A stretch of DNA of 22,470 nucleotides from a virus, in the IMG/VR virus record IMGVR_UViG_3300008886_000081. One strand, 5' to 3'. The translations under genes and the position numbers were made by a program. The notes beneath the pieces are model-generated. The model ran no database searches. It saw only the letters and a list, made by a program, of their open reading frames with translations, and was not told the origin of the DNA. Positions 1 to 16,550 of the stretch are shown here, one piece after another. The first letter of the stretch is position 1, and each line of letters begins with the position of its first letter.

Positions 1-3000
1 TTAGGCTGCTATTTGTAACATTACTAAAAGGGCTTCTGCTTCCAGCTCCAAAAGACGCAGGCGTTTTTTCTCGCTTTGGTCTTCTGCGCCTTCGGGTGGT
101 GGCAATACGATAGGAATACGGTTTGAGGATTTAATGGCATTTTCATTCAACTGTGATAGCTGGCGCTCCGTCACAATGACGCTGATGCCGTGATTGAATT
201 GCAGGACGCGTAAAAAGTCTTCCAGGTTAGAAGAGGTGACAATACCCTGCATCCGGTCTGAGACCTTTTCAAACATGTTTTTTTGCAGATAGGGGAAGAG
301 GTCGGGATCAAGGTATATATCCCCGGCTTTCGATCTTGCAAGCGGCATGATGAAACGAAAGCCTTCCGGGGAACGGAACACCGATATGCTCCCGCTGGCA
401 GTGAGCTGGCCATTTGTCAGAGAGCTGATGATGGGCAATGCTTTTAAGATCGGTACTTTTATTTCACGGTCGCCCTTTGCCGGCGCTTCCCATTCTTCCG
501 GCATTAAAATCCCTTTCTTAACCTGCCCGTCCATTGTGGTATAGCTTATCAGTTTCCCGCTTTTTCCTTCAAAGGCTTGTAGGATATTGCCTGTAATGAT
601 ATAGCGGGTATCACGGTCCTTAATGCGTCCGGCGATGGCCTCTCCCCACATATCCAATAATTCATCTATCGGCGGTTCACCTGCTTCCAGGCTTGCCGTC
701 ATAATGGAGGATATATCTTTATGATTACTCAGGGGAATTGCCATATAACGCATGCTGTTGCAAATGGCAATGAGTAGTTTCATGGAGCTGGGGGCGTAGG
801 GGTTTTTCTTTTTCATGTCAATGCTTACCCCAAGACTGACCGCTAAGGCCATTTCCTTGCCGTCATTGTAAGTACTGATCGGATAATTGAGCCTGCGGCC
901 CACATGAAAAAATTTCAGTATCGGATTTAGAAACTGATACCTGCTTTCCTGTGCCTTTTTCAGCATGGCCTTGTTTAGCTCACGCGCGCTTTCCAGTTCT
1001 TCTTTTCGCAGTTCAATGGCTTCCCTCCACTCTGCCGAATGTTCTTCCAGCTTCCTGATCGGGCGCTCATTAGGGACTTCGTTTATCAGGAAGTCATATT
1101 TTTCATCAGCCTCTTTGACCTCTAATTCATAACGATCAAGGCAGGCCTGCTTGAAATCGGCGGCTAAGTCTTTGCTTAGCTCAGCCGACAACTTACCACC
1201 CAGGCGCTCATCGACTTTTTTTGCCAGCTCTGTCGTGGTAAAGGGCTTACGCAGCACATTGGCTTTTACTTTTTCCAGGTAGCTGTCCTCGCCAAAGGCA
1301 CTGTTCCCGCCTTGCCCCATAATCATCACGGATGTTTCCTGTGTTTCTGTCTTTAAGTCTAGTGCCTCAACTTCCAGATCATATTCTCCGGCTTGCTGCA
1401 AATAGGTAATATAGTCATTGTAACGCTCAATCACTTCATTATAGAAAACAGCCTGCATTTTCGTTGATAAGACGGCGACACGTCCCGACACGCGGTGTGC
1501 CGCGTCTTCACCTCCTTTTACGTCCCGTTGCTCACCCTTTGCGCCCATTATAAAAAGCGGGTCGTCCAGCATCCTGTTCACCTCCGGGTTTTCTTTTAAG
1601 TATTCAACTACTACCTTATCGCCGTACTTGTTCAGAAAGTCAGGGACATCTAAAATACTGTTGCTCTGTTTCTGGTTGGAAGTTGTGTTAGCATCCAGCG
1701 ATTTTAGTTTTTGCTGTAGCAGCATCATCAAACGCTTTTCAGCCGGAATAGCTGATACCACATAATCATAGATCGGTTTCAGGATTTGCCCGGTGCGGTT
1801 GATTCTACCGCGTTTCTGTACTTCCGTGTTGATGTCCAGCTCGGGCTGCAGCACGATCATCACCCGTTGTTTAACTTCTTCCTTTGATACTTTAGGAGTA
1901 ACGATAGCATGAGCCGAAGCACCTGTACTACCGGACTGATTAATCATCAGCACATCCACTTCATTGTTATTAAACTGCCGGAAGGCATCATTCGCAGGTA
2001 TTTTCTTCCGTGCCAGCACAAGCCCCTTTGTTGCACTGTCATTGATCTGCACACTGAATTTCCGGCCTGTCACTTCCGCAACGCTATAACCTGCCGCCTC
2101 CAGCTTTTTAATAATCACGTCAATGGGTGAGATACAAAGGCTGGTGCTGACCGTGTCTATTTCATGCAGGATAGCTTTATAGGTCACGGTTGCTTCCACT
2201 CCCAGCTCGGCAAGGTCAAACTCCTTATGTTCGCCCTCGCCGTCAATGCCATATTCTGTATACTGACATACGCTTTCAAGCCCTCGCCTGAGCACCATTG
2301 AAAAATCCAGGTCAATCAGGTCGCCGTCACCAACGGGCATCCCGTGCGGGGTCTCCATTTGTTCAATAAAACTACCCATCGTAGAGGCAAAGGCAATTAC
2401 AGGTTTTTTGCCTTCCTTTAAGCGCATGATAGCCCTGTCTGCTACCGCCTCTGCCTTGATGCTAAACAGCATTTGGTTTATCACATTGAAGACTTTAGAG
2501 AAATAGGGCAGGTTGTCAGCGCCTGCTCTCTGGGTGCCTTCACGCACGGCCACCGATTTGCTTTCTTTTGCCTTGATAGCATCCAGTTGTTCAACCTGTT
2601 TATTGACATACTTGGTCTGAAAGTCTATGATCTGCCGCATAATTCCGGTAATACTGTCGGAAATAGCCGTATGCTTTTGTTCCAGCTCATCAAGGGTAAT
2701 ATAATTGACTTCGATACCTTCAAAGGAGCGCTCCCGTCTTATCATTTGCCCTTCGGATACCAATTGGCTGGATATGATCTCCTGTAAAGCGACACCGCCC
2801 TTGCTGATGGCGTCGACAAGAGCATCCTGCGTCAGACTGGCATCACTGATCGAAGTCTTGGAAGCGTAAATCGGCATATTGTCGGGGCGTTTGGCAAAAG
2901 TTGCGGACAGGAAAACCACGCCTTTGGTTTTGCGCACGACATCGCGCATAAATTCTCCGGTATTGCTTGAGCCGCTGGCATTGTGGGATTCATCAAGTAT

Positions 3001-5805
3001 CAGGATATTGTCAGTAGCAACAGCACTGAGATAGTAGGGCTTTTCAGGCTTCTTTTCTTTAGAGTTAAACTGTGAGTAGGTTGCAACCGCAAAATCAAAG
3101 CCTAAAGGTATTCTCTGCGTTTTAAAGATGCTGGATTGCTCGGAAGGACCGAGTGCCTGGTAAACGATAGTGCCGTCCTCGTCTTTAATATCCGTTTTGG
3201 ATTCGCGGCCGTTAATGATGAAGGGGCGGAGGTTCCCCGAGCCTATCGCTACCAGGTCACGGTAAATATCAGAAAACAGGTTCGCTTTTTCGGTAATGAA
3301 AACTGGCTTTAATCCCTGCTTCACCGCATAACGTATCATAGCAGCCGCTACACGCCCTTTCCCGATGCCTGTCTGATCGCCGATAATGGTTCCCTGCTCA
3401 CGTCCCTCGATATTATAAATGGCCATTGCCACAGCATCTATCTGCTCGGCAGATAAGGCTTTGCAAAGCTGGTCTTTGGTTTTATAGCCGAGCCTGTGCC
3501 GAACAAAATTATCAATGTCGCCGCCAACTTCTGCCTTGATACGCTTCATGGCTGCATGTATCTCCGCGCCCATTGCATCTGGTACGTGGGTATCGAGTAT
3601 AAAGCAGCTTTGTGACGCAGGGGTATAAAGCATACCTAATTCATCCTGTGACAAGAGGGCCATAATGCTGGCGGCTTCTGCTTCCAGGGCTTTGATCTGA
3701 AAAGGAGTTCTTTTAGTCATGATCGCGTTTTTAGAAGGTTTATTATCTTGATGCGGTACATACTGCATGATGCGCTCAAATAATTCCGCAAAGCTGTCCG
3801 CAACCTTATCCGCGCCGGCTTGCTTCAGAGGTGCAGCACCTTCGGGTGTTTCTTTTCTTCCGTCAATTAGAATCAGCCTTGTCGGGAAGGCAGTTCCTTG
3901 CCTGGAATAAAGCTTATGCCCATTGATCGGTATGACATCCACGACATTGTAATAGTGATAGAGGTGGTTAAAGAATATCCGGTTTTTGCCCGCCTGCACA
4001 CGACCCAATTTATCCCACACAGTATGTCCGCCGATGATTATCGCCGCTCTGCCGTCAGTGGTCATGGTCGACAGGGCACGGATAGCCATGACATGATCGA
4101 GTTCACGAATGCGAAACGAGTCAAACATGACTCCCTTATCAAGTCTGCCGAATGGCGGATTGGTTATCACCGCTGGAAAACTACCTTGTATATCGAGGTA
4201 TGAGCTTTCACTGAGTGCATCCCGTGAGAATACATTAGCAAATCCCTGTGTTTGCAGGTTGCGATTTCTCAGGATGTCAATCTCATTGACATAGACCCGC
4301 TCGGGCCTCGCGGCAATGGTCAGGCTGCCATTACCTGCACAAGGTTCGTAAGCATAGCCACCTGTTTCATCCAGCTTGTCAATACCACAGAAAATGCCCA
4401 TCAGAAAACCGATCGGCACAGGTGTGGAATATTGTTGTAATAGTATGCTCTGACTGGTACGGTGTGACAGTGTAACCTGGTTATGGTATAGGTTAACGAT
4501 TAGCTCATAGCGCCTTTCAAGAGGCATAGGCAGGTGTGCGAGGTATCGGGCCTGCCTGACGATAGCCAGCTCCAGCAGTTCCTTTAGCTGGGTACGGTCG
4601 CTGATTTCGTAGCGTTTTGCAAGTCGGTTGATCTCGACGCCTGACACCTTTGTCCCTTTTCTTAGTTCGTCATCGACAAGGTGTAAAAAACGGGCTTCAT
4701 TGGAATGCAGTAAGGTAGGTTCAGGCAGGCCTAACAGGCCTTCGTCCACAAAAGAATAGTAACCCTCGCGGGTTACTATTATATGATCGAGTACTTCTAT
4801 ATCCATTTGCCGGGCAGCTTCCCGGAGCCTTTTGGTCATATCAATATCCGGCTGGCTTGGTCGCTTGTTCCCGCTCGGGTGGTTATGTGAGATAATGATT
4901 GAAGAGGCCAGTGAGCGCAGTGCGACAGCCAGGATAAGTCGGGTTTCAGCAAACACACCACTAATGCCTCCTTTGGCGTGTTTGTAATATCCCAGAAGAT
5001 TATTGGCACGGTCGAGATACAAGACAATAAATTGCTCCTGCACCTCGATCTCTCCACGTATAAAAGTCTTGCGGATAAAATTAGCGACCTGAAGAGAGGA
5101 TGAAAGCCTGCCCTCAAACTCTTTGCGGGAACTTCGGTTATAACGCACCTTTATTTCAGGTATGTCTATCTTCGGAACTGCTCCACTCAACACGACCTCC
5201 TGATCTTCCCGGAATCCATTTCCGGCAAGTCCGAACATGGTGTTTTCTCTGTCTTGCATATATTTCTTAGTACGTAATTTCAATTGCTTATCAAGGATTG
5301 CCATATAGGACAAATGCAGGTGAAACGATAGGCCTTCAGGCAGATCGAGGATAACAGATTTCTCTGTCGCGTTATATAACCTGACCAGGTAGCCATACAG
5401 CTCAAGGATGTCCTCGCGGTACGGTGACCGTTGGGGTACTTGTTTCAATCTTTGCTCAAAGCGCCAGATCATAAAACGCAGCTCGGTCTTATTTAAACGG
5501 GCCTTATCTAATATCTGCCCGATGCGTAGCAGCTTTGCTTCCTCTGAATGCTCCCATTCCGGCTTTATTTCCGGTTGGTCTTCCGGTGCGACATACTTGC
5601 CATTTATCCAGGAGCGCAGTTTTTTAAAGGTCATATTGCAGCGCAGTTTAAAATCTGCATCGCTGTTATATTCACTCCAGTCCTTGCCCATATTGGTGCG
5701 CTTGGCAATGGCAACGAAAGCAGTTTGTAGTTGTGCCGGCAAGGCATCATAACCTTTTTCCTCTATGAGCCTGAAAAAATTGGATTTGGTGACAAGTGCT
5801 TTCAT
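1..5805 (-). CDS. 1934-aa multidomain protein: N-terminal helical region, RadC-type JAB domain, amino (N6-adenine-type) DNA methyltransferase, Strawberry-notch-like SF2 helicase (AAA_34 + Helicase_C_4-like)
   Basis: JAB: QEQF..LYLDRAN...SHNHPSGNKRPSQPD...EVLDHIIV (~4735-5165). MTase: QQYSTP, EPCAGNG (motif I), NEID, ITNPPF (motif IV) (~3850-4440). Helicase: IIGDQTGIGKGR, ATYSQF, LDESHNA, FLSAT, TGASAHA, QKRGRINRTGQ (~1700-3400). Confidence 0.9.
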   Translation of the reverse strand: MKALVTKSNFFRLIEEKGYDALPAQLQTAFVAIAKRTNMGKDWSEYNSDADFKLRCNMTFKKLRSWINGKYVAPEDQPEIKPEWEHSEEAKLLRIGQILDKARLNKTELRFMIWRFEQRLKQVPQRSPYREDILELYGYLVRLYNATEKSVILDLPEGLSFHLHLSYMAILDKQLKLRTKKYMQDRENTMFGLAGNGFREDQEVVLSGAVPKIDIPEIKVRYNRSSRKEFEGRLSSSLQVANFIRKTFIRGEIEVQEQFIVLYLDRANNLLGYYKHAKGGISGVFAETRLILAVALRSLASSIIISHNHPSGNKRPSQPDIDMTKRLREAARQMDIEVLDHIIVTREGYYSFVDEGLLGLPEPTLLHSNEARFLHLVDDELRKGTKVSGVEINRLAKRYEISDRTQLKELLELAIVRQARYLAHLPMPLERRYELIVNLYHNQVTLSHRTSQSILLQQYSTPVPIGFLMGIFCGIDKLDETGGYAYEPCAGNGSLTIAARPERVYVNEIDILRNRNLQTQGFANVFSRDALSESSYLDIQGSFPAVITNPPFGRLDKGVMFDSFRIRELDHVMAIRALSTMTTDGRAAIIIGGHTVWDKLGRVQAGKNRIFFNHLYHYYNVVDVIPINGHKLYSRQGTAFPTRLILIDGRKETPEGAAPLKQAGADKVADSFAELFERIMQYVPHQDNKPSKNAIMTKRTPFQIKALEAEAASIMALLSQDELGMLYTPASQSCFILDTHVPDAMGAEIHAAMKRIKAEVGGDIDNFVRHRLGYKTKDQLCKALSAEQIDAVAMAIYNIEGREQGTIIGDQTGIGKGRVAAAMIRYAVKQGLKPVFITEKANLFSDIYRDLVAIGSGNLRPFIINGRESKTDIKDEDGTIVYQALGPSEQSSIFKTQRIPLGFDFAVATYSQFNSKEKKPEKPYYLSAVATDNILILDESHNASGSSNTGEFMRDVVRKTKGVVFLSATFAKRPDNMPIYASKTSISDASLTQDALVDAISKGGVALQEIISSQLVSEGQMIRRERSFEGIEVNYITLDELEQKHTAISDSITGIMRQIIDFQTKYVNKQVEQLDAIKAKESKSVAVREGTQRAGADNLPYFSKVFNVINQMLFSIKAEAVADRAIMRLKEGKKPVIAFASTMGSFIEQMETPHGMPVGDGDLIDLDFSMVLRRGLESVCQYTEYGIDGEGEHKEFDLAELGVEATVTYKAILHEIDTVSTSLCISPIDVIIKKLEAAGYSVAEVTGRKFSVQINDSATKGLVLARKKIPANDAFRQFNNNEVDVLMINQSGSTGASAHAIVTPKVSKEEVKQRVMIVLQPELDINTEVQKRGRINRTGQILKPIYDYVVSAIPAEKRLMMLLQQKLKSLDANTTSNQKQSNSILDVPDFLNKYGDKVVVEYLKENPEVNRMLDDPLFIMGAKGEQRDVKGGEDAAHRVSGRVAVLSTKMQAVFYNEVIERYNDYITYLQQAGEYDLEVEALDLKTETQETSVMIMGQGGNSAFGEDSYLEKVKANVLRKPFTTTELAKKVDERLGGKLSAELSKDLAADFKQACLDRYELEVKEADEKYDFLINEVPNERPIRKLEEHSAEWREAIELRKEELESARELNKAMLKKAQESRYQFLNPILKFFHVGRRLNYPISTYNDGKEMALAVSLGVSIDMKKKNPYAPSSMKLLIAICNSMRYMAIPLSNHKDISSIMTASLEAGEPPIDELLDMWGEAIAGRIKDRDTRYIITGNILQAFEGKSGKLISYTTMDGQVKKGILMPEEWEAPAKGDREIKVPILKALPIISSLTNGQLTASGSISVFRSPEGFRFIMPLARSKAGDIYLDPDLFPYLQKNMFEKVSDRMQGIVTSSNLEDFLRVLQFNHGISVIVTERQLSQLNENAIKSSNRIPIVLPPPEGAEDQSEKKRLRLLELEAEALLVMLQIAA

Positions 5806-9427: not shown

Positions 9428-10339
9428 TTAGTGCATTGATACATCCATGCCGGATACTTTAAATTCATCGGCACCACCCTTAAAGCTGTAGTGCAGTCCG
9501 TCAAAGGCAATGGCGCGGCCTAATACCATATTGGCAGGTACTTTAATGGCTCTGCCTTCTTTGTAGACCGCTGTTCCGGCGCGTGTTGTCAGGATGCCCA
9601 ATGGCAGGCCGGAAAGTCCGGCAGGCAGTGACCATTTGTCTTTTGCTTCGTCATAGACAAGGCCCATCCGGCGGAAGGTCAGACGAAGCTGTGCTTGTTG
9701 CGCGGCATTGGTAAACACCTTGAACATGCCTGTGAGCAGGGATTGGTAGCGGACAGGCCCGTGACGGATACCCTTATACTGTTCCGATATGGCGGCATAG
9801 TCTTTCGCTGTGGTAATCCTGTTCAGGTGTGTTAAGGCATGGGTGAAATTACGCTGCAAGGTGGACTGCGCTAATGCCATTGCAATGCCGCGTGTATCGG
9901 GTTTGGAGTTTTTAATCAGCACATCAAAGGTGTCTTTATCGACGCTGGCAGGAAGGCCAAGCTTTGTGAGCGCGGCTGCCAGCTCAGGCGTGTAGCTGCC
10001 ATTGGCTCCCTGCTTGGGAAGAATGCTTTTACCATAGGTATTGATAAGGGCCTGTTGCAAAGCCTTGACATGATCGCCTTTGGAGCCTTTTCCGATAGGC
10101 TGAAAACCTTGCGGAGCCTGCGGTTTCTTCGGCGTGGTCTTCGCTTTGGCTGTCTTGGTTTTTACGGTCGGGGCTTTAGGCTTCACCTCTGCGGGTTTTT
10201 CTTCCGGTGTCAAAACTTCCTGCTCCCCGCTTTTATTAAAATGCTGCCAGCCGAAGTAGGTCAATACACCGAGGCCTGCCATGCCTATGCCACCGACTAT
10301 CCATTTCCAGGTTGCCCCTTTGGGTTTCGTGTTGCTCAT
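9428..10339 (-). CDS. Membrane-anchored protein with peptidoglycan-binding (PG_binding_1-like) domain (303 aa)
   Basis: N-terminal TM WIVGGIGMAGLGVLTYFGW; K/P/T/A-rich linker; PIGKGSKGDHVKALQQAL...ANGSYTPELAAAL resembles the PG_binding_1 consensus; then a helical domain, a GLSG motif and a small beta domain. Confidence 0.7.
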   Translation of the reverse strand: MSNTKPKGATWKWIVGGIGMAGLGVLTYFGWQHFNKSGEQEVLTPEEKPAEVKPKAPTVKTKTAKAKTTPKKPQAPQGFQPIGKGSKGDHVKALQQALINTYGKSILPKQGANGSYTPELAAALTKLGLPASVDKDTFDVLIKNSKPDTRGIAMALAQSTLQRNFTHALTHLNRITTAKDYAAISEQYKGIRHGPVRYQSLLTGMFKVFTNAAQQAQLRLTFRRMGLVYDEAKDKWSLPAGLSGLPLGILTTRAGTAVYKEGRAIKVPANMVLGRAIAFDGLHYSFKGGADEFKVSGMDVSMH

Positions 10340-10341
10340 GT

Positions 10342-11028
10342 TTACTTTGGTTTGCTGTTAATGATGTTCATGTAATCGGGATATTCCCAGAATTCCAGCT
10401 CTCCCTTCAGGTCAACATCGAGGCTGCTACCGTATTTTCGCTTATAGGTGTCCTTCACCAAGCGAAAAGCTGTCTGTGTCGGGATTTCAGCGAACACGCT
10501 TTTTATTCCGTCTTCATCCGTTGCCGGGAAATAGCCCTGATGATGATCGAAGGCGGCCTTCAATCGGTTTGCCCAGGCTTCGTATTTTACATTAGGGGCT
10601 ACTGCTTTACCTTTAGAGGGTTTGACATTGATAATGTTCAGCATGTCCTTCAGCTCATTAGGTTTCAGGTACTTTTCCATATCTGTGCCTAATGGCGTAT
10701 GGTACATATTCTGGTATTGCTGGCGGACAGATTCAACTTCCTCCTGCGTTTTCATTCCCGTGATGATCTCGCGCAGGTAAGTGGTGTTGCTTCCCCAATC
10801 GCCCTGATTTTCCAGTGCGGAATGCAACTGTTTGGCAACAGATTGTGCAGAGCCGGGCACAAAGGTTTTTTTCTCTGCTTTATTGGTTTTTCCTTTTTTA
10901 AATAGTTTCGATGCACCATAGCCAAGACCGATGCATCCAGCAAGGGCAAGGATAGAATACAATACTTTATCCTTAAAGCTGGTGCCTTTGGCTTCTGTAT
11001 CTTTCTGTATGATGACTGGCTGCTGCAT
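10342..11028 (-). CDS. Membrane-anchored protein with two annexin-like repeats (228 aa)
   Basis: Hydrophobic segment VLYSILALAGCIGLGYGA. Repeat 1: AKQLHSAL..GDWGSN...REII...VRQQYQNMYHTPLGTDMEKYL. Repeat 2: ANRLKAAF...ATDEDGIKSVF...VKDTYKRKYGSSLDVDLKGEL. Both follow the annexin repeat consensus. Confidence 0.75.
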   Translation of the reverse strand: MQQPVIIQKDTEAKGTSFKDKVLYSILALAGCIGLGYGASKLFKKGKTNKAEKKTFVPGSAQSVAKQLHSALENQGDWGSNTTYLREIITGMKTQEEVESVRQQYQNMYHTPLGTDMEKYLKPNELKDMLNIINVKPSKGKAVAPNVKYEAWANRLKAAFDHHQGYFPATDEDGIKSVFAEIPTQTAFRLVKDTYKRKYGSSLDVDLKGELEFWEYPDYMNIINSKPK

Positions 11029-11039
11029 GTCTTATCGCA

Positions 11040-11222
11040 TTACACGCCGAGCGCTGACTTTGCCATAGCCAGCTTGGCGGGTTCGTGTTTGATAATATGC
11101 TTGAGTGCGGCCAGCTCTTTCTCGGTCAACGCAGAAGATAAAGCTGCCAGTGAATCGGCTTTAGAATCAGCCTCAGCCTGGGTAGTTGCTTTGATTTGTA
11201 AATTGTATGAATAGCTTTTCAT
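11040..11222 (-). CDS. Small Ala-rich helical hypothetical protein (60 aa)
   Basis: ATG-initiated ORF that fills the operon gap with 11-nt spacers on both sides. Confidence 0.75.
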   Translation of the reverse strand: MKSYSYNLQIKATTQAEADSKADSLAALSSALTEKELAALKHIIKHEPAKLAMAKSALGV

Positions 11223-11233
11223 GTAATGGATTA

Positions 11234-12094
11234 TTAAAAGTTGTTAGTTTGATTATCTTTTGGCAGGAGAAGCTCACAGACAGTTTGTAATTGCGATTTG
11301 TCTTTTGAGAAAAGGATAAGCAGCTCCATGATCTGATTCATTTCATCGTCAGTAAACACATTTTGTAACTGACCAAACAGATCTATAAAGTGTTGTTCTT
11401 CTTCGCTCAGCTCAGAGGCAGAAGAACCAGCGCTTACGGTTGTTTCGCCTACAGGTTCCGAATTCGTTTGCAGTCGCTTGTTGTCGTCTTCGATGATGCC
11501 TGCGAGACCTTCTGCACCGGGAATACGGGCAAGCAGGTGAGCGTTACGCTTCAATATTCCTTCCCCGACAAAGGATAGGATATTGCCCCACTTCATTTCT
11601 TCTTTTTTTACCCCGGCCTTGTATTCTTCCAGTTCTTTTTCGACCAGCTCTGCGTATTGCTCGGCTTCCTGTAAATTGGCTTTGGCCTTCTCGTATTCCT
11701 CCTGCAATTTTTCATAGTCCCATTGCAGGCGCTCTCCCTGATTCTGTTTGCGCTGTAGCTCGGAAATGGTTTTTGCTGTATAGGAATTGCCAAAGCCGTT
11801 CAGGCCCATCTCCACAGCTTCTTTGGTATTGCGGGCCTGAACAGCAAAAACATACTGCTCATTGCGTTTTGATTTTTCCGAGCCGTAGATAATGACGCGC
11901 AGCTCCCGGCTGTCCGCATTCAAATAATCTTCATGGCTGTCAAAGTCTTCGATATTATCTGTTCGCGGTATCGCTTTCAGCCCGTCCACCTGGATTTCGT
12001 AAAACAGCGGGCGGCCTTTTGAGGCGGCTGTTTCCAGGTGCTGACGCAAACGGTCAACCTTGCTTTGTTGGTAGTTATCAAACTGTATCGGCAT
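11234..12094 (-). CDS. Acidic coiled-coil hypothetical protein (286 aa; start reassigned to MPIQ)
   Basis: The ORF track's 5' extension overlaps the upstream gene by about 140 nt; the ATG at 12094 overlaps by only 17 nt. Central heptad-rich region LQWDYEKLQEEYEKAKANLQEAEQYAELVEKELEEY flanked by GLNG and GLAG motifs. Confidence 0.75.
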   Translation of the reverse strand: MPIQFDNYQQSKVDRLRQHLETAASKGRPLFYEIQVDGLKAIPRTDNIEDFDSHEDYLNADSRELRVIIYGSEKSKRNEQYVFAVQARNTKEAVEMGLNGFGNSYTAKTISELQRKQNQGERLQWDYEKLQEEYEKAKANLQEAEQYAELVEKELEEYKAGVKKEEMKWGNILSFVGEGILKRNAHLLARIPGAEGLAGIIEDDNKRLQTNSEPVGETTVSAGSSASELSEEEQHFIDLFGQLQNVFTDDEMNQIMELLILFSKDKSQLQTVCELLLPKDNQTNNF

Positions 12095-12419
12095 TTTTCG
12101 GGTGTTTAGGAATAATGTGTAAAAAAGGAACGTGGCGCAGAGAGGTAGAAACGTTGATGATCGAAATGGCACCCTGATGTTCGTATTGCTGCTCGTTGGT
12201 ATCGGTGTTTGACAGGTCAAAAAGACCGAATTCCGAAGTGATCGTTATATCGCTGACATCTTCTGTTAAGATGTAGAGTTGGTTAAAGCCCTCTATTTCT
12301 ACTGTAGCTCCAGGCGCTACAACAAAGAGCCGTTGCCGCAGGTAATAGTTTGTGCCATAGCCTAACTCTTCCATGCGCTTAGGCACATAATCGTAGATCA
12401 GAATGGCGTTACTCATCAT
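12078..12419 (-). CDS. Small beta-rich hypothetical protein (113 aa), candidate minor capsid/vertex protein
   Basis: ATGA overlap with the upstream gene; alternating hydrophobic strands (RLFVVAPGATVEIEG, ITITSEFG, GAISIIN). The structural role is inferred from position. Confidence 0.65.
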   Translation of the reverse strand: MMSNAILIYDYVPKRMEELGYGTNYYLRQRLFVVAPGATVEIEGFNQLYILTEDVSDITITSEFGLFDLSNTDTNEQQYEHQGAISIINVSTSLRHVPFLHIIPKHPKNADTV

Positions 12420-12922
12420 TGCGCGGTTTGTGGTTTTGCTTTTTCTGCCATGCGCAGCCAGAGATAGATGCTCAGGCTGTAGGCCGGATTGGTTCCCATG
12501 TAGTTGCCAAGCTGATCGGTATACATCCCGCGAATGACTGTAGAGCCTCCCGGCACAGATACGGGTTCCGGTTCTCTTTCACCGAAGTGTGTCCAGTCCG
12601 CAGGTGTAAAACCAGGTTTGACAGAGTAATCGCCGAAGCTGGTATTACCGTCCGACTGGATATGCCTTGCGTAAAACACATTGGCTTTCTCCATGCTTTG
12701 CAACCTCAATTCTCCGACTAACAGCGAACGGTTATAGGGTAACAGGTTTGCATCCAGTGGTACTACAGCAGGGTTTTCGTACAGGAAATTGACCTGAGAG
12801 ATATAGCTTGTTTCCACGCCAATCACCTCAAGGGTATTCTCCGGCAGGTTCATTAGAAAATAATGAATCTGTCCTTTGCGGCTAATGGTGATGCGTTTGG
12901 ATATGACGTGTTCGACGGGCAT
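12416..12922 (-). CDS. Beta-rich hypothetical protein (168 aa), apparent paralog of the upstream 125-aa protein; candidate minor jelly-roll capsid protein
   Basis: Shares I.I...GQ.......L......V.GV..(.)S near the N-terminus and YTD...P(.)Y..S.Y at the C-terminus with 12928..13305. Confidence 0.65.
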   Translation of the reverse strand: MPVEHVISKRITISRKGQIHYFLMNLPENTLEVIGVETSYISQVNFLYENPAVVPLDANLLPYNRSLLVGELRLQSMEKANVFYARHIQSDGNTSFGDYSVKPGFTPADWTHFGEREPEPVSVPGGSTVIRGMYTDQLGNYMGTNPAYSLSIYLWLRMAEKAKPQTAQ

Positions 12923-12927
12923 TGATC

Positions 12928-13305
12928 TTATAGTTCAGCATTACAATCCACGTAGAGCGATACGCGGTAAGGGGTGAAAACGGTTCTGCCGTCAGGGACA
13001 TCGGTATAACTGATCTTTACCGTGCCATCACCCACAGGCACTTCTCCCAGCTCGTAATAGCGTTGACGGGGTGATACATTAATGCCGGACATCAGCAGTT
13101 TGCTTTCGTAATTGTCAGGGAAGTATTCTTCCTTATTAATTTCTATCTTCTGTGTGCCACGGTAGTACAGCAGATCGTCTTTGTCGGAAGTTACCAGTAC
13201 ACCGCGCACAGTCTTAATGGTCTTGTCCAGGTCAAAGGATTTTGACACATTCTGTCCCGAGTTAGTAATGGCGATGTCGTATCGTTTCTTGATTGGTTTC
13301 AGCAT
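12928..13305 (-). CDS. Beta-rich hypothetical protein (125 aa), candidate second single-jelly-roll capsid protein
   Basis: About eight short amphipathic strands (KRYDIAI, VSKSFDL, VRGVLVT, TQKIEIN, YYEL, TVKISYT, YRVSLYV); directly follows the 238-aa gene. Confidence 0.65.
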   Translation of the reverse strand: MLKPIKKRYDIAITNSGQNVSKSFDLDKTIKTVRGVLVTSDKDDLLYYRGTQKIEINKEEYFPDNYESKLLMSGINVSPRQRYYELGEVPVGDGTVKISYTDVPDGRTVFTPYRVSLYVDCNAEL

Positions 13306-13320
13306 GGTAAAAAGGTTTTA

Positions 13321-13349
13321 AATGCGGCGGCTATGACAGCCGCCGCATT
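13321..13349 (-). terminator. Perfect 12-bp hairpin after the candidate major capsid gene (leaky terminator or 3' stabiliser)
   Basis: aatgcggcggct-atgac-agccgccgcatt. On the minus strand it is followed only by a weak, interrupted U run (TAAAACCTTTTT), 15 nt before the next ATG. Confidence 0.7.
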
Positions 13350-13365
13350 AAGGGTTACTGTGTTG

Positions 13366-14082
13366 TTATGGAGTGGTAATGGTACCGTGTAACCCTACAT
13401 AGAGGTGTGTGTTTGCCGCAATGCCATCCATTGTACCTAACTCCACGGTCATCTCAATTAAGATGTCATCGTGAATTAATCGCGGATTGGCCAGCTTGAA
13501 ATAACCCACCGGGATATTGTGTCTGTTATTGGTCTTAAAGACATTGTTAGAGGTCTCCGGTACAATGATCTTTTTGTTGCTCTTTAATGAGAACTCGCCA
13601 TTGGCAATAGCCGGGATAGCTTCCAGCCCGTCAAACTGTGTGGCCATGATCTTGTCTTTGGTGTTGGCTGCCGCCACACCTGCCAGAAGGATAATGCCGC
13701 TGACAAGCAAGGCCTGGTTCTTTGGAAGCTTGGCTCCTGAAAGGGATTGCAGGCCGATTTCCTTTGTATCCTGCGTTTCAAACATCTTGATACTTTTGGA
13801 TGTCACAGGCTTAATGGAGTAGATCGTGGTATCGGCCAAGCGCAGCTCACTCTTCAAAAGAGCTTCCTTAATGTGCTTCGGCAGCTCACCGAAATGTTTT
13901 TCCATTTCAGCCCTTGAGCCTTTACTGACAGCTCCGGGAGAGGCGAGCTTGTTGATCGTCTTGGCTCGTTTTACCGGGTCCATACGGCGCAGTGCGCCTA
14001 AGAGTTCATCTCCGTCGAGGCCGTCCAGGCCGAGGAGAGCGCCTACGTTATTGTAGTCTTCGATTCCTTCTAAGTCTAACAT
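13366..14082 (-). CDS. Candidate major capsid protein, single jelly-roll type, with acidic Leu-x-Gly N-terminal peptide (238 aa)
   Basis: The C-terminal ~160 aa read as an 8-strand sandwich (TTIYSIK, KMFE, KLPKNQALLVSGIIL, NGEFSLKSN, GYFKLANPRLI, IEMTVEL, THLYVGLHG). It is the only structural-module gene bracketed by RNA stems and a long A-rich leader. The ORF is certain; the fold and role are inferred. Confidence 0.55.
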   Translation of the reverse strand: MLDLEGIEDYNNVGALLGLDGLDGDELLGALRRMDPVKRAKTINKLASPGAVSKGSRAEMEKHFGELPKHIKEALLKSELRLADTTIYSIKPVTSKSIKMFETQDTKEIGLQSLSGAKLPKNQALLVSGIILLAGVAAANTKDKIMATQFDGLEAIPAIANGEFSLKSNKKIIVPETSNNVFKTNNRHNIPVGYFKLANPRLIHDDILIEMTVELGTMDGIAANTHLYVGLHGTITTP

Positions 14083-14126
14083 GATTTTTATTTTTGGGTT
14101 TATGGGTTTTCTGTTTTTTTTTTAAA

Positions 14127-14233
14127 ACTGAAAGGCAAGACTTCCCCCGTTCCACTGACCTGAAGGCTTGTGGCGCAATACATAAACTGTATGTGTATGA
14201 GGTGGTGAAAGGAGAGAAGCCTTGCCGATCAGT
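14127..14233 (-). promoter_or_regulatory. Long imperfect RNA stem-loop in the leader of the candidate capsid gene
   Basis: 14127-14155 pairs with 14205-14233 at 26 of 29 positions on the minus-strand RNA, including four G-U wobbles that would be A-C mismatches on the plus strand. There is a small inner hairpin acata-aactg-tatgt. Confidence 0.65.
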
Positions 14234-14244
14234 CGGTAGCTTTT

Positions 14245-14841
14245 TTATAGAATAGGGTTGTCTTCATCTGCCCCGTCGATGCCATCATAGCCTGATGTTC
14301 CGGCAACCTCTTCGAGTTGATTTTCGATAGCATCAAGGCCTGAAAAATCATCCGGCCCGTTTACGGTTTCCTGGGCGGGGTATCGGAAATACTGTACTTC
14401 ACCCAAACCTGCCGTTCCTGTGTTCGTGGTCGCTGCGGGCTTTGGTTTTATGATCTTATCAATATAGAGGCGCTCCTTGAGGTTTTGGGTAAAGGCTTTA
14501 AAGCGCGCTTTGACCGCGTCCATGCCTTCAAGTCCGTCTGTTCCGTTCATAGCGGCCTGCCCGATCTGGTAGCCACCGGATGCCATCATACCTACGCCAA
14601 AGGATGTAGCAAGGGGATGACCGAAATAATGTCCGGCAAGGGTTACTCCGATACCTACCAGCAGCGAAGGCTTGCCAACCAGTGCGCCAGCTGTGCCGCC
14701 AATGACAGCACCCACAACCAAGTCTTTGCCTGTTTCAATGGCAGAGTTCTTTAAGTTGTTTTTTGTTTCCAGCTTCTTGGTCAGCTCTACCAATTTCCTG
14801 CGTTTGGCCTTTTGGGCGTAAGCGTTTTTTGTGTTACTCAT
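14245..14841 (-). CDS. Glycine-rich membrane protein (198 aa) with basic N-terminus and acidic C-tail
   Basis: Glycine-zipper hydrophobic core LVVGAVIGGTAGALVG..LLVGIGVTLAG..ATSFGVGMMASGG; N-terminal KAKRRK; multiple x-x-G motifs (MNG, LEG, GLG, VNG, IDG). Confidence 0.75.
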   Translation of the reverse strand: MSNTKNAYAQKAKRRKLVELTKKLETKNNLKNSAIETGKDLVVGAVIGGTAGALVGKPSLLVGIGVTLAGHYFGHPLATSFGVGMMASGGYQIGQAAMNGTDGLEGMDAVKARFKAFTQNLKERLYIDKIIKPKPAATTNTGTAGLGEVQYFRYPAQETVNGPDDFSGLDAIENQLEEVAGTSGYDGIDGADEDNPIL

Positions 14842-14861
14842 GTGTCTGTGCTTATCAGGTT

Positions 14862-16550
14862 TTACATTAAGGAAACAGGGCTGATTTGCTTATAGCGCTT
14901 GGCCCTCTTTTTTCGTTTGCCGCGTGGCGGGCCGTTTAATCCGCCTGCGGTTTTCTTTCCTTTTTTCTTGTTTTTTTTAATCAGGGCAATGGCAGCAACC
15001 GTTAGTACGCCTGCGGTAATGCCTGTTGGAATCATCCAGCGTTTATGCTTTGTCCAGAATGCCTTTACCTTATCACCTACGCCTGAGAGTCCTTCGGTTG
15101 TTCCGCCTTCATCGCCTGTTTCGGCAGGCAGGTTTTCATCTGCTGATTCCTGGGGAGCATCTTCTGTCGACTCTTCGGCTGCAGGTTCATCGGCAGGGGC
15201 TTCTGCCTCCGGTTCCGATGCTTCGCCGCCGCTGTCTTCTTCGCCGCCTGTTTCGGATGCTGATTCCTCTGCACCCTTTTTCTTTTTGTTGGGCATCACA
15301 TTGCCGATGCCTTTGATGACCGCAGCAATAGCAGTGATAACGGTCGTCGCTGCGGCGACTGCGGCTCCGGTAGCAGGTTCTCCCAACTGTCCGAGGCCCT
15401 CAATGCCTTCTACCATTTCACTGTGGTACAGATCTGCACCTAACAATGTCCCTACAGGTGTAGCCTCATCAATCCCCTCCATCTGTCCAGATAAACTATC
15501 CAGCGCACCCAACCCGTTTACACCTTTGTCCCTATTGCCCCTGCCACTCAGAATAGCTTTCTTCAGGTTTTCAGGTTTACCCCCGGCTGAATAAAAGACC
15601 TTTTCCAGTTTTTGAAGGGCTTGTTTCATCCGGTTATAGCGGCCCATGTCTGCGCCTTTGGCTCTGGCCTGATCTTCGGGAAGGTAAGCCCAGCGCAGGT
15701 TTTCACCGACTTTCATGATGTTTAGTTTCATCGAGGCAAGTATGCCCGCTCTTAACAGCGCTACACCGGGATTGACGCGGTTGGCTGCGTGTACCACCTT
15801 TTTCACGCCTGCCTTGATGCGCGCGCCCAGCTTTTTTTTGCCACCACCTCCGGCAGCTTTGTTTGCTGCGGCTTTGCGCTTGAAGAGCCTGCCAAGTCCG
15901 AGCAGATCATCACTGCCTGCCAGGTCTTGTGCATCAATGCCTTTCAAGTTTATGTCCTCTTCATCGAGGCCGTCTAAAAATTGTAATTCCATGTTATGAT
16001 CTTCTTTATCGGTGTAAGGGACTTCGTAGTTGAATTGGCTTGCTACGCAGTCCATAATGATATATCCCCCGTTTCCGTCCGGTATCAGCGGGTACACGTG
16101 CTGAAAAAAGCCCTTATGGTCGTATTCGGTAATCCGGTTAATGATGCCTTTTACACCGAGTTCATCCATACAGCAGTCGATGAAAGTTGTAAAGCAATCG
16201 CAGTCACCTTTGCCGTCATGTACCAGGCGGCGCGGTGAGCGCACCCATTCAAGCCCGTCAGGCTTTAAGGGTTTGCCGTTTTCATCTACGCCGTCTTTTT
16301 CATATTGTATATGGTACTTGACCCAATGCCAGAGTTTTTCACACTGCTTGTACCTGGACAGGCCTCGTAGTTCTTTATCAACAAAGCGCGTTACCTGCCA
16401 GCGGCATTGCTGAACGACTTTAGGGATAAACCTGATCGTATCGGAAACGCCTGCTTTTTTCTTTACCGTCTTATCTACTACCAGCGCGCGGGGGAAGAGG
16501 TGTCGGTAAGGCGCAAGGCTTTGCAGCCTTACCTGTGTATCCGGTCCCAT
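14862..16550 (-). CDS. Transglutaminase-like (Cys-His-Asp) enzyme fused to a low-complexity membrane-anchored region (562 aa); candidate maturation protease
   Basis: LWHWVKYHIQYEKD, VRSPRRL, GKGDCDC (Cys), QHVYP (His), YIIMD (Asp) match the transglutaminase-like superfamily. The C-terminal part has acidic LxG tracts, an E/A/P-rich linker, a TM (GITAGVLTVAAIALI) and a basic tail. Confidence 0.8.
   Translation of the reverse strand: MGPDTQVRLQSLAPYRHLFPRALVVDKTVKKKAGVSDTIRFIPKVVQQCRWQVTRFVDKELRGLSRYKQCEKLWHWVKYHIQYEKDGVDENGKPLKPDGLEWVRSPRRLVHDGKGDCDCFTTFIDCCMDELGVKGIINRITEYDHKGFFQHVYPLIPDGNGGYIIMDCVASQFNYEVPYTDKEDHNMELQFLDGLDEEDINLKGIDAQDLAGSDDLLGLGRLFKRKAAANKAAGGGGKKKLGARIKAGVKKVVHAANRVNPGVALLRAGILASMKLNIMKVGENLRWAYLPEDQARAKGADMGRYNRMKQALQKLEKVFYSAGGKPENLKKAILSGRGNRDKGVNGLGALDSLSGQMEGIDEATPVGTLLGADLYHSEMVEGIEGLGQLGEPATGAAVAAATTVITAIAAVIKGIGNVMPNKKKKGAEESASETGGEEDSGGEASEPEAEAPADEPAAEESTEDAPQESADENLPAETGDEGGTTEGLSGVGDKVKAFWTKHKRWMIPTGITAGVLTVAAIALIKKNKKKGKKTAGGLNGPPRGKRKKRAKRYKQISPVSLM

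Follow-up and report, generated by a model that had tools for sequence, protein, structure and literature searches.

What do the short glycine motifs that recur across the structural proteins of a virus-like element of Bacteroidota stand for? The question is raised by IMG/VR virus record IMGVR_UViG_3300008886_000081, a stretch of 22,470 nucleotides (referred to as the window), where one long operon runs along the minus strand from 18655 to 1; its products are named here by their length in amino acids (aa), and features of the window located below are on this strand unless stated otherwise. The initial annotation saw in these proteins a recurring acidic [LIVM]-x-G motif, and read it as a maturation cleavage code analogous to that of adenoviruses and served by a transglutaminase-fold enzyme in the 562-aa protein. 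The loose motif does not bear this out, yet a sharper pentapeptide, hydrophobic-[S/T/N/Q]-G-hydrophobic-G (typically L-N/S-G-L/F-G), stands out in a few proteins and at the borders of their modules. These glycine motifs may be recognition or cleavage sites for the element's own protease-like domain, which resembles LapG and forms the N-terminal part of the 562-aa protein. We put this forward tentatively, as the likeliest of the readings considered, on the basis of sequence patterns and a predicted fold.

How much of the loose motif can be told from chance? The strings quoted in the initial annotation are all found in the genes to which it assigned them. When each protein was shuffled, however, the count of [LIVM]-x-G was close to expectation in the 562-aa protein (16 observed, 14.3 expected, P 0.34), the 303-aa protein (7 against 6.5, P 0.48) and the 286/328-aa protein (6 against 3.7, P 0.14). 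It was nominally raised in the 198-aa protein (11 against 6.0, nominal P 0.015) and the 238-aa protein (10 against 5.6, nominal P 0.03). The giant 1934-aa protein, with 33 sites against 31.6 expected, is not enriched and gives no sign of membership in a motif system. Taken over their orthologues from about 80 loci, the five proteins have an observed/expected ratio of 1.45, compared with 1.10 for the products of flanking genes in 80 related loci, which stood in for the host proteome; 1.45 falls inside the host per-protein spread (95th percentile 1.83). The recurring code, as originally written, is therefore at chance level in most of the proteins. Clustering of the sites in acidic linkers, also claimed, fails for six of the 11 sites of the 198-aa protein, which lie in a hydrophobic Gly-zipper membrane segment (residues 42-70). 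A switch to basic sequence after the motif is present at G29 of the 238-aa protein and G220 of the 562-aa protein, where net charge rises from -4 over the 15 preceding residues to +4.4 over the 15 that follow (74-82 sequences); elsewhere there is no switch or an opposite one. An unmasking of basic DNA-binding segments by removal of acidic propeptides would then apply to two sites at most.

Does a more exact pattern fare better? An unbiased reduced-alphabet scan of all 5-mers was made in 16 proteins, four families from each of four lineages, with 100 shuffled sets for comparison. The three lineages besides that of the window are L084 (a second element copy in the isolate genome G001), L086 and L088, all with at most about 35% identity to the window. 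The pattern h-[STNQ]-G-h-G (h, hydrophobic) ranks at the top, with 15 occurrences versus 0.58 expected (z 18.9; shuffle maximum z 13.4). In the form h-x-G-h-G it exceeds expectation 7.2-fold across the 562-aa family and 17-fold across the 286-aa family, with observed/expected ratios of 0.78 in host proteins and 1.06 in the giant helicase family. The comparison with host background proposed in the initial annotation is thus negative for LxG and positive for the sharpened pentapeptide. Nearly all matches are in 562-, 286- and 198-like proteins; the operon-strand open reading frames (ORFs) of the window, about 6,400 aa, contain the motif four times, three of these in the 562- and 286-aa proteins, and in the 303-aa protein neither motif is enriched outside its membrane segment.

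The shared logo of the pentapeptides is K-G-[LV]-[NS]-G-[LF]-G-[ED]-[LI]-[DEG]. In the close family they concentrate in the second linker of the 562-aa protein, with an observed/expected ratio of 12.6 relative to the composition of that region. The protease-bearing proteins of the four lineages carry 5, 2, 6 and 3 pentapeptides versus about 0.35 expected, and the 286-like proteins one h-x-G-h-G each versus about 0.05. Some pentapeptides stand at non-homologous linker positions in different lineages while the count is kept, a positional turnover such as short functional motifs typically show. Acidic G-[LIM]-[DE] patterns (E-G-I-E, D-G-L-D) also recur (z about 9), under the family-wise threshold. 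Other readings of the motif were tried and set aside: a lipobox, as there is no Cys; prepilin and sortase LPXTG sites; and a transglutaminase Gln/Lys cross-link site, as position 2 is mostly N or S.

Where are the conserved glycines placed? In alignments of about 75-80 orthologues per family, a subset of the loose sites forms islands retained at 80-100% in linkers of 14-50% local identity: positions 192, 344, 369 and 538 of the 562-aa protein (weaker at 210, 380 and 383), 98, 104 and 188 of the 198-aa protein, 98 and 197 of the 286-aa protein, and 4, 16, 19 and 27 of the 238-aa protein. In the 562-aa protein, the pentapeptides and the looser conserved sites fall at module borders, within linkers that are variable and of low predicted local distance difference test (pLDDT) score. 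The protease-bearing proteins of the three distant lineages carry motifs of this kind at the matching borders, although the linkers themselves cannot be aligned.

The first island, F-L-D-G (residues 191-194, 15969..15980), directly follows the protease-like domain and is retained in 99% of 73 orthologues where local identity is 0.39; pLDDT in the AlphaFold2 (AF2) model is below 50 from residue 189. This border reads FLDG in the window and SLNG, FLGG and MNGLG in the distant lineages. L-L-G-L-G (residues 216-220, 15891..15905) marks the acidic-to-basic switch ahead of RLFKRK, with a family consensus of G-x-L-G-K-L-F-K-K and a net charge of -4.4 upstream and +4.5 downstream of G220 in 74 sequences. 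The strict pentapeptide at this point is specific to the window (4% of orthologues); two distant lineages have the counterparts LYLG-RVKQRQK and SLG-KLKIKK, and L088 is without a clear one. Linker 2 (residues 344-387, 15390..15521), between a helical domain and the first hydrophobic segment, contains V-N-G-L-G, L-L-G and V-E-G-I-E-G-L-G. A pentapeptide is present here in 89% of orthologues, sites 344 and 369 are retained at 97-100%, and the border after the helical domain, VNGLG in the window, reads RLNGL and LSGLG in distant lineages. L-N-G (residues 538-540, 14931..14939) lies after the second hydrophobic segment and ahead of the C-terminal basic tail; it is 99% retained at a local identity of 0.31, and GLNGP of the window corresponds to QLNGY, ALNGLG and QLSGLG.

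Two 562-aa orthologues are interrupted. At L039:7599-9326 (JBPOHJ010000012.1) the gene is split into ORFs of 381 and 189 aa, with the stop two codons ahead of N-L-N-G-L-G and just before the first hydrophobic segment. At L071:7490-9326 it is frameshifted within the lysine-rich linker 1, encoded by a run of A; slippage, a pseudogene or a sequencing error in the homopolymer could each account for this.

Similar islands are found in two smaller proteins. In the 198-aa protein, M-N-G-T-D-G-L-E-G (residues 98-106, 14524..14550; retention 92% and 81%) follows the Gly-zipper membrane segment and belongs to a conserved V/M-N-G ... L-x-G-L/M-D island; the homologues have V-N-G-L-G in L086 and I-S-G-M-G in L084. 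In the 286-aa protein, L-N-G-F-G (residues 98-102, 11789..11803), between the N-terminal domain and a coiled coil, is 88% retained at a local identity of 0.23. Its family consensus is G-L-N-G-L-G, and h-[STNQ]-G-h-G is present here in three of the four lineages, L086 having a variant with a different second residue. L-A-G (residues 197-199, 11498..11506) separates the coiled coil from the acidic C-terminal part; it is 97% retained and has the counterpart M-L-A-G-T-E-E in the second element of G001. L-S-G of the 303-aa protein (residues 242-244, 9608..9616) is weaker and loosely placed, with a retention of 66% by strict and 100% by tolerant matching.

What kind of enzyme might read these motifs? 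The presence of a transglutaminase-fold enzyme in the 562-aa protein, as first proposed, is well borne out. Residues 1-188 (15987..16550; pLDDT mostly above 90) form a transglutaminase-fold (BTLCP/LapG-like) domain with a triad of C117, H151 (16098-16100) and D167 (16050-16052), invariant and in the order Cys-His-Asp in 30 homologues, as are D116-C117-D118 (16197-16205). The three distant lineages keep the triad as DCDC, QH[IV]Y and [IV]D[CA]V, and the domain is intact in every lineage examined. Pfam Transglut_core (PF01841) matches 14 of the 30 homologues (best E 1.7e-7); the window's own protein has a DUF553 (PF04473) match at E 0.12 and 12.2 bits, below the cut-off of 20.5. Alignment of the AF2 domain model with VIA-align gives 21 chains at Z of at least 8, all transglutaminase-like: LapG, 3kd4, 3isr, TglA, PeiP, PNGase and TGase. 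The highest scores go to LapG (4u65_E, 4fgo, 4fgq; Z 10.3-10.8 over 131-138 aligned residues) and to 3kd4, a putative Parabacteroides protease (Z 10.4); below them come TglA, PeiP (Z 9.0), PeiW (Z 8.3), PNGase and the true transglutaminases, factor XIII/TG2 among them. A cross-linking transglutaminase, the outcome that was to speak against the proposed code, is thus represented lower in the list, and the nearest fold neighbours are proteases.

The likeness to LapG is one of fold. The triad is ordered as in LapG, and its Cys lies between acidic residues in both; in the LapG-family protein DvhG the acidic pair of D316-C317-E318 is a calcium site beside the catalytic Cys (PMC13090378), an arrangement that D116-C117-D118 mirrors. 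LapG-family enzymes cut at [T/A/P]-A-A-G, with small residues round the scissile bond and then Gly (PMC13090378), and N/S-G-L-G is similar as a short motif of a small residue followed by Gly. Yet a TAAG-type site is not among the conserved features of the 562-aa protein; the K-A-A-G of residues 231-234 is in a non-conserved stretch. Nor does the protein have a signal peptide-like segment, as no hydrophobic N-terminal segment is present and the first segment with a hydropathy of at least 1.5 begins at residue 394. Instead, a 370-residue body that includes two hydrophobic segments is joined to the domain, and the gene belongs to a virus-like module, with no giant adhesin, LapD-type receptor or type I secretion genes beside it; the window has no adhesin or LapD-like gene. 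A sequence profile of the 562-aa protein searched against all Protein Data Bank sequences at E up to 10 matched no solved chain and did not return LapG, identity in the structural alignment being 10-16%. By its predicted structure, the enzyme is a member of the transglutaminase-like superfamily and most like a BTLCP protease; membership in the LapG family itself fails on context and substrate motif, and gains no backing from sequence similarity. Calcium control of the module is hinted at, by analogy, by D-C-D and by an annexin-like repeat in the 228-aa protein of the operon (10342-11028; Pfam Annexin E 8e-7).

And the proposed analogy with adenoviruses? The proteases of adenovirus and mavirus act at short glycine sites, (M/I/L)XGX-G, GG|X and GX|G (PMC3386624; PMC6048507). 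The first is the adenovirus type-1 consensus (PMC3386624), beside which adenain also has (M/I/L)XGG-X, and in mavirus GG|X and GX|G are cut in the capsid protein and MV13 (PMC6048507). The window pentapeptide is a formal fit to the type-1 consensus and to GX|G of mavirus. There are further parallels with adenain and the clan CE proteases of virophages, African swine fever virus (ASFV) and poxviruses: a putative cysteine protease in a virion module, glycine sites in several structural proteins and a vertical jelly-roll capsid protein. The analogy goes no further than this, as adenain has a Ulp1-like fold with the order H-E/D-C, unlike the transglutaminase-like C-H-D of the 562-aa enzyme, which is no adenain homologue, and the host here is bacterial. 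Since fold and catalytic-residue order differ, any likeness of code would be convergent.

Is the setting in fact that of a virus? The 238-aa gene (13366-14082) points in this direction and agrees with the structural role first assigned to these proteins. Residues 54-238 (13369..13923) form a jelly-roll core, a candidate major capsid protein, with a pLDDT of 88-96 (85 for the whole model). Its best VIA-align match is the SPV1 capsid protein (6oj0_T, 149 of 178 residues), at a Z of 8.8 that is barely over the tool's stated noise range. PBCV-1, EhV-201, HCIV-1, HHIV-2, P23-77 VP17 and PRD1 P3 follow at Z 5.4-7.8, the Faustovirus capsid protein is also among the vertical jelly-roll matches, and capsid proteins make up 12 of the 15 top fold rows. 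In Foldseek, the capsid proteins of EhV-201 and SPV1 match at E 4e-5 to 2e-4. As in SPV1 (Portogloboviridae) and other single vertical jelly-roll viruses (Sphaerolipoviridae/Simuloviridae, P23-77, HCIV-1, HHIV-2), small beta-rich genes follow the capsid gene, many membrane proteins are predicted and none of the module's genes can be recognised as a packaging ATPase. Unlike these viruses, the element is integrated in the chromosome of a Bacteroidota host and known from genes alone, and searches of phage records and PHROGs revealed nothing similar in sequence. The 238-aa protein has over 1,400 homologues, of which the 120 best are 71-83% identical, and 454 further distant relatives; ten distant relatives compared with PHROGs gave nothing significant (one match, E 0.005). 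A 204-aa jelly-roll paralogue without the N-terminal peptide directly follows the full-length gene in some elements and recalls two-capsid-protein systems. When relatives of the 238-aa protein lacking the N-terminal peptide or the protease were looked for as a natural negative control, the one informative contig (JGI contig of P0247) had this extra gene and the protease as well.

The N-terminal 36 residues of the 238-aa protein (13975..14082) form an acidic peptide with four hydrophobic-x-G sites, and E-L-L-G is followed by basic A-L-R-R-M. Sites 4, 16, 19 and 27 are retained at 96-100%, the charge changes at G29 from -4.0 to +4.4, and [DE]-x-L-[LIV]-G persists in relatives at 30-35% identity. 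A profile of residues 1-36 run against all ORFs of 81 loci matched nothing significantly beyond its own family, the best score being 7 bits at an E of about 1, so the likeness between LEGIEDYNNVGALLG and MEGIDEATPVGTLLG of the 562-aa protein is not that of a conserved shared module, and this candidate was dropped. Prediction of a complex between the protease domain (residues 1-190) and residues 1-60 of the 238-aa protein gave a score of 0.00 and no answer, which bears neither way on binding.

How might such a system work? The LapG-like domain would first free itself from the 562-aa protein and then cut the multi-module body to which it is fused; next would come the trimming of the coiled-coil, scaffold-like 286-aa protein, the 198-aa membrane protein and the 238-aa N-terminal peptide. 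The enzyme is encoded alongside the motif proteins, and the motif is restricted to a few structural proteins. One and the same pentapeptide is met ahead of membrane segments, ahead of a coiled coil and in a basic tail, and at non-homologous positions in different lineages, a variety that one reader enzyme explains more easily than several binding partners would.

A number of observations weigh against cleavage. The loose motif is at chance level, and the pentapeptide was sharpened post hoc, a concern that is reduced by the unbiased scan and the family-wise shuffle. The 238-aa family has no pentapeptide enrichment (observed/expected 0.15). The split orthologue of L039, an anecdotal point in favour, was seen in one metagenome-assembled genome only and may reflect a misassembly as well as a natural two-gene arrangement. 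The 238-aa peptide is conserved along its entire length of 36 residues (about 75% identity), not at a cut site only, and is partly helical in the AF2 model (pLDDT 46-71); conservation throughout suggests a binding role beyond that of a cut site, and the peptide would suit a binding arm no less than a propeptide. Could the islands then function uncut, as flexible hinges or as short docking motifs for the capsid shell, the internal membrane or calcium, which place the modules at assembly, with the 238-aa peptide an attached assembly arm? Besides the peptide, the G-[LIM]-[DE] patterns, which look like acidic Gly-Asp calcium-binding loops, the annexin-like protein of the same operon and the several motif copies immediately before hydrophobic segments are in keeping with this possibility. 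The recurrence of one pentapeptide in varied contexts and at positions that differ between lineages is less easily fitted to it, as is the intact and invariant cysteine-protease-like domain that is always encoded alongside; we regard it as possible, on the unlikely side.

The transglutaminase-fold set is a further point against cleavage, as it also holds wall isopeptidases, PNGase and true transglutaminases, and with such mixed activities the domain could serve entry or other chemistry. It might be a virion-borne entry or exit enzyme (a peptidoglycan isopeptidase, as PeiP/PeiW), a deamidase or a cross-linker, the glycine motifs being unrelated. With two hydrophobic segments the 562-aa protein could be membrane-anchored, a form that recalls the membrane-associated muralytic proteins of PRD1-type phages, and an amidase and a peptidoglycan-binding protein are among its neighbours. 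These same neighbours mean that the operon already has dedicated wall enzymes, and the LapG-type proteases score best, with a calcium site that the D-C-D signature matches; for cross-linking, the motif offers no conserved Gln or Lys. We consider this alternative improbable. A by-product of glycine- and leucine-rich flexible linkers and shared ancestry, without specific function, appears quite improbable. The chance-level loose motif and the post hoc refinement of motif definitions would suit it, and the four lineages are homologous, so that shared sites are not independent. Against this, the enrichment in linker 2 was measured relative to region-specific composition, the pattern exceeds all 100 family-wise shuffles, motif columns are 90-100% conserved where adjacent columns are not, and host proteins and the giant protein lack enrichment.

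If the LapG-like domain does cut the motif, it would be a first bacterial example of a glycine code and a convergence on another protease fold. To our knowledge, glycine-code maturation is a feature of eukaryotic jelly-roll viruses with clan CE proteases (adenoviruses, virophages, ASFV, poxviruses) and not of bacterial tailless viruses. The motif gives exact predictions for the ends of the mature proteins, and would provide a handle for the study of an element family common in Chitinophagaceae and Sphingobacteriales genomes. A bolder proposal can be made, and it is an unlikely one: that the element belongs to an unrecognised, widespread lineage of membrane-containing jelly-roll viruses of Bacteroidota, with a polyprotein-like cascade run by a calcium-gated LapG-type protease, silent in the low-calcium cytoplasm and firing on release or entry at L-N/S-G-L-G. 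By such a cascade the glycine cleavage code of adenoviruses and virophages would have arisen again by convergence, with another protease fold and in a bacterial host.

What of the rest of the element? In order, the operon products have 92, 186, 186, 562, 198, 238, 125, 168, 113, 286, 228, 303, 149, 227, 80, 211, 169, 287 and 1934 aa. The recognisable genes, besides the annexin-like one, encode an Amidase_2 (149-aa protein), a C5 DNA methylase (287-aa protein), a peptidoglycan-binding part in the 303-aa protein and a giant protein with RadC and a Strawberry-notch helicase (1934 aa, 1-5805). The 562-, 238-, 125- and 168-aa proteins had no match above threshold in Pfam and PHROGs, and the Pfam matches of the 198- and 113-aa proteins were sub-threshold, at chance level. 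A tblastn search of 50,697 phage records found nothing. The 238-, 125-, 168-, 113-, 169- and 186-aa families, compared by hhalign, show no paralogy (probabilities below 3%). Membrane proteins were predicted by hydropathy alone. The best explanation of the window is that it holds the structural module of an integrated, undescribed Bacteroidota virus-like element, in which lysis enzymes and several membrane proteins accompany the capsid-like jelly-roll protein. Neither the pentapeptides nor an element of this kind turned up in the literature searched.

Gene order is kept in about 80 loci of Chitinophagaceae, Sphingobacteriales and other Bacteroidota genomes, and a regulator with a helix-turn-helix and Peptidase_M78 is frequently found upstream. 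The 238-aa family has 276 matches in GTDB species genomes versus 2 in 2.9 million IMG/VR contigs, and none among the 50,697 phage records; present virus detection appears to miss this element. Cultured carriers include Flaviaesturariibacter aridisoli 17J68-15 (L022) and Chitinophagaceae bacterium IBVUCB1 (L029). Several genomes have two copies. In G001 (the genome of locus L029), L084 is a second, divergent copy of the whole module (G001:C1:261000-280900), whose relative of the 238-aa protein is 34% identical, and a large serine recombinase (Resolvase, Recombinase and Zn_ribbon_recom; 2509-4071, minus strand) adjoins it.

Past 19 kb of the window the GC content, about 47% until then, declines to 34%, which probably marks an edge of the element. 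Between 19000 and 22470 the genes turn to the plus strand, among them one for a 609-aa protein with DUF4365, and this part is probably the element boundary and a separate island. On the other side, downstream of the giant gene, G001 carries (L085:4055-6968, minus strand) a 497-aa protein with a weak P-loop AAA_24 match and a 445-aa orphan, followed by housekeeping genes. The 497-aa protein, which lies beyond the extent of the window, is a candidate packaging or replication ATPase.

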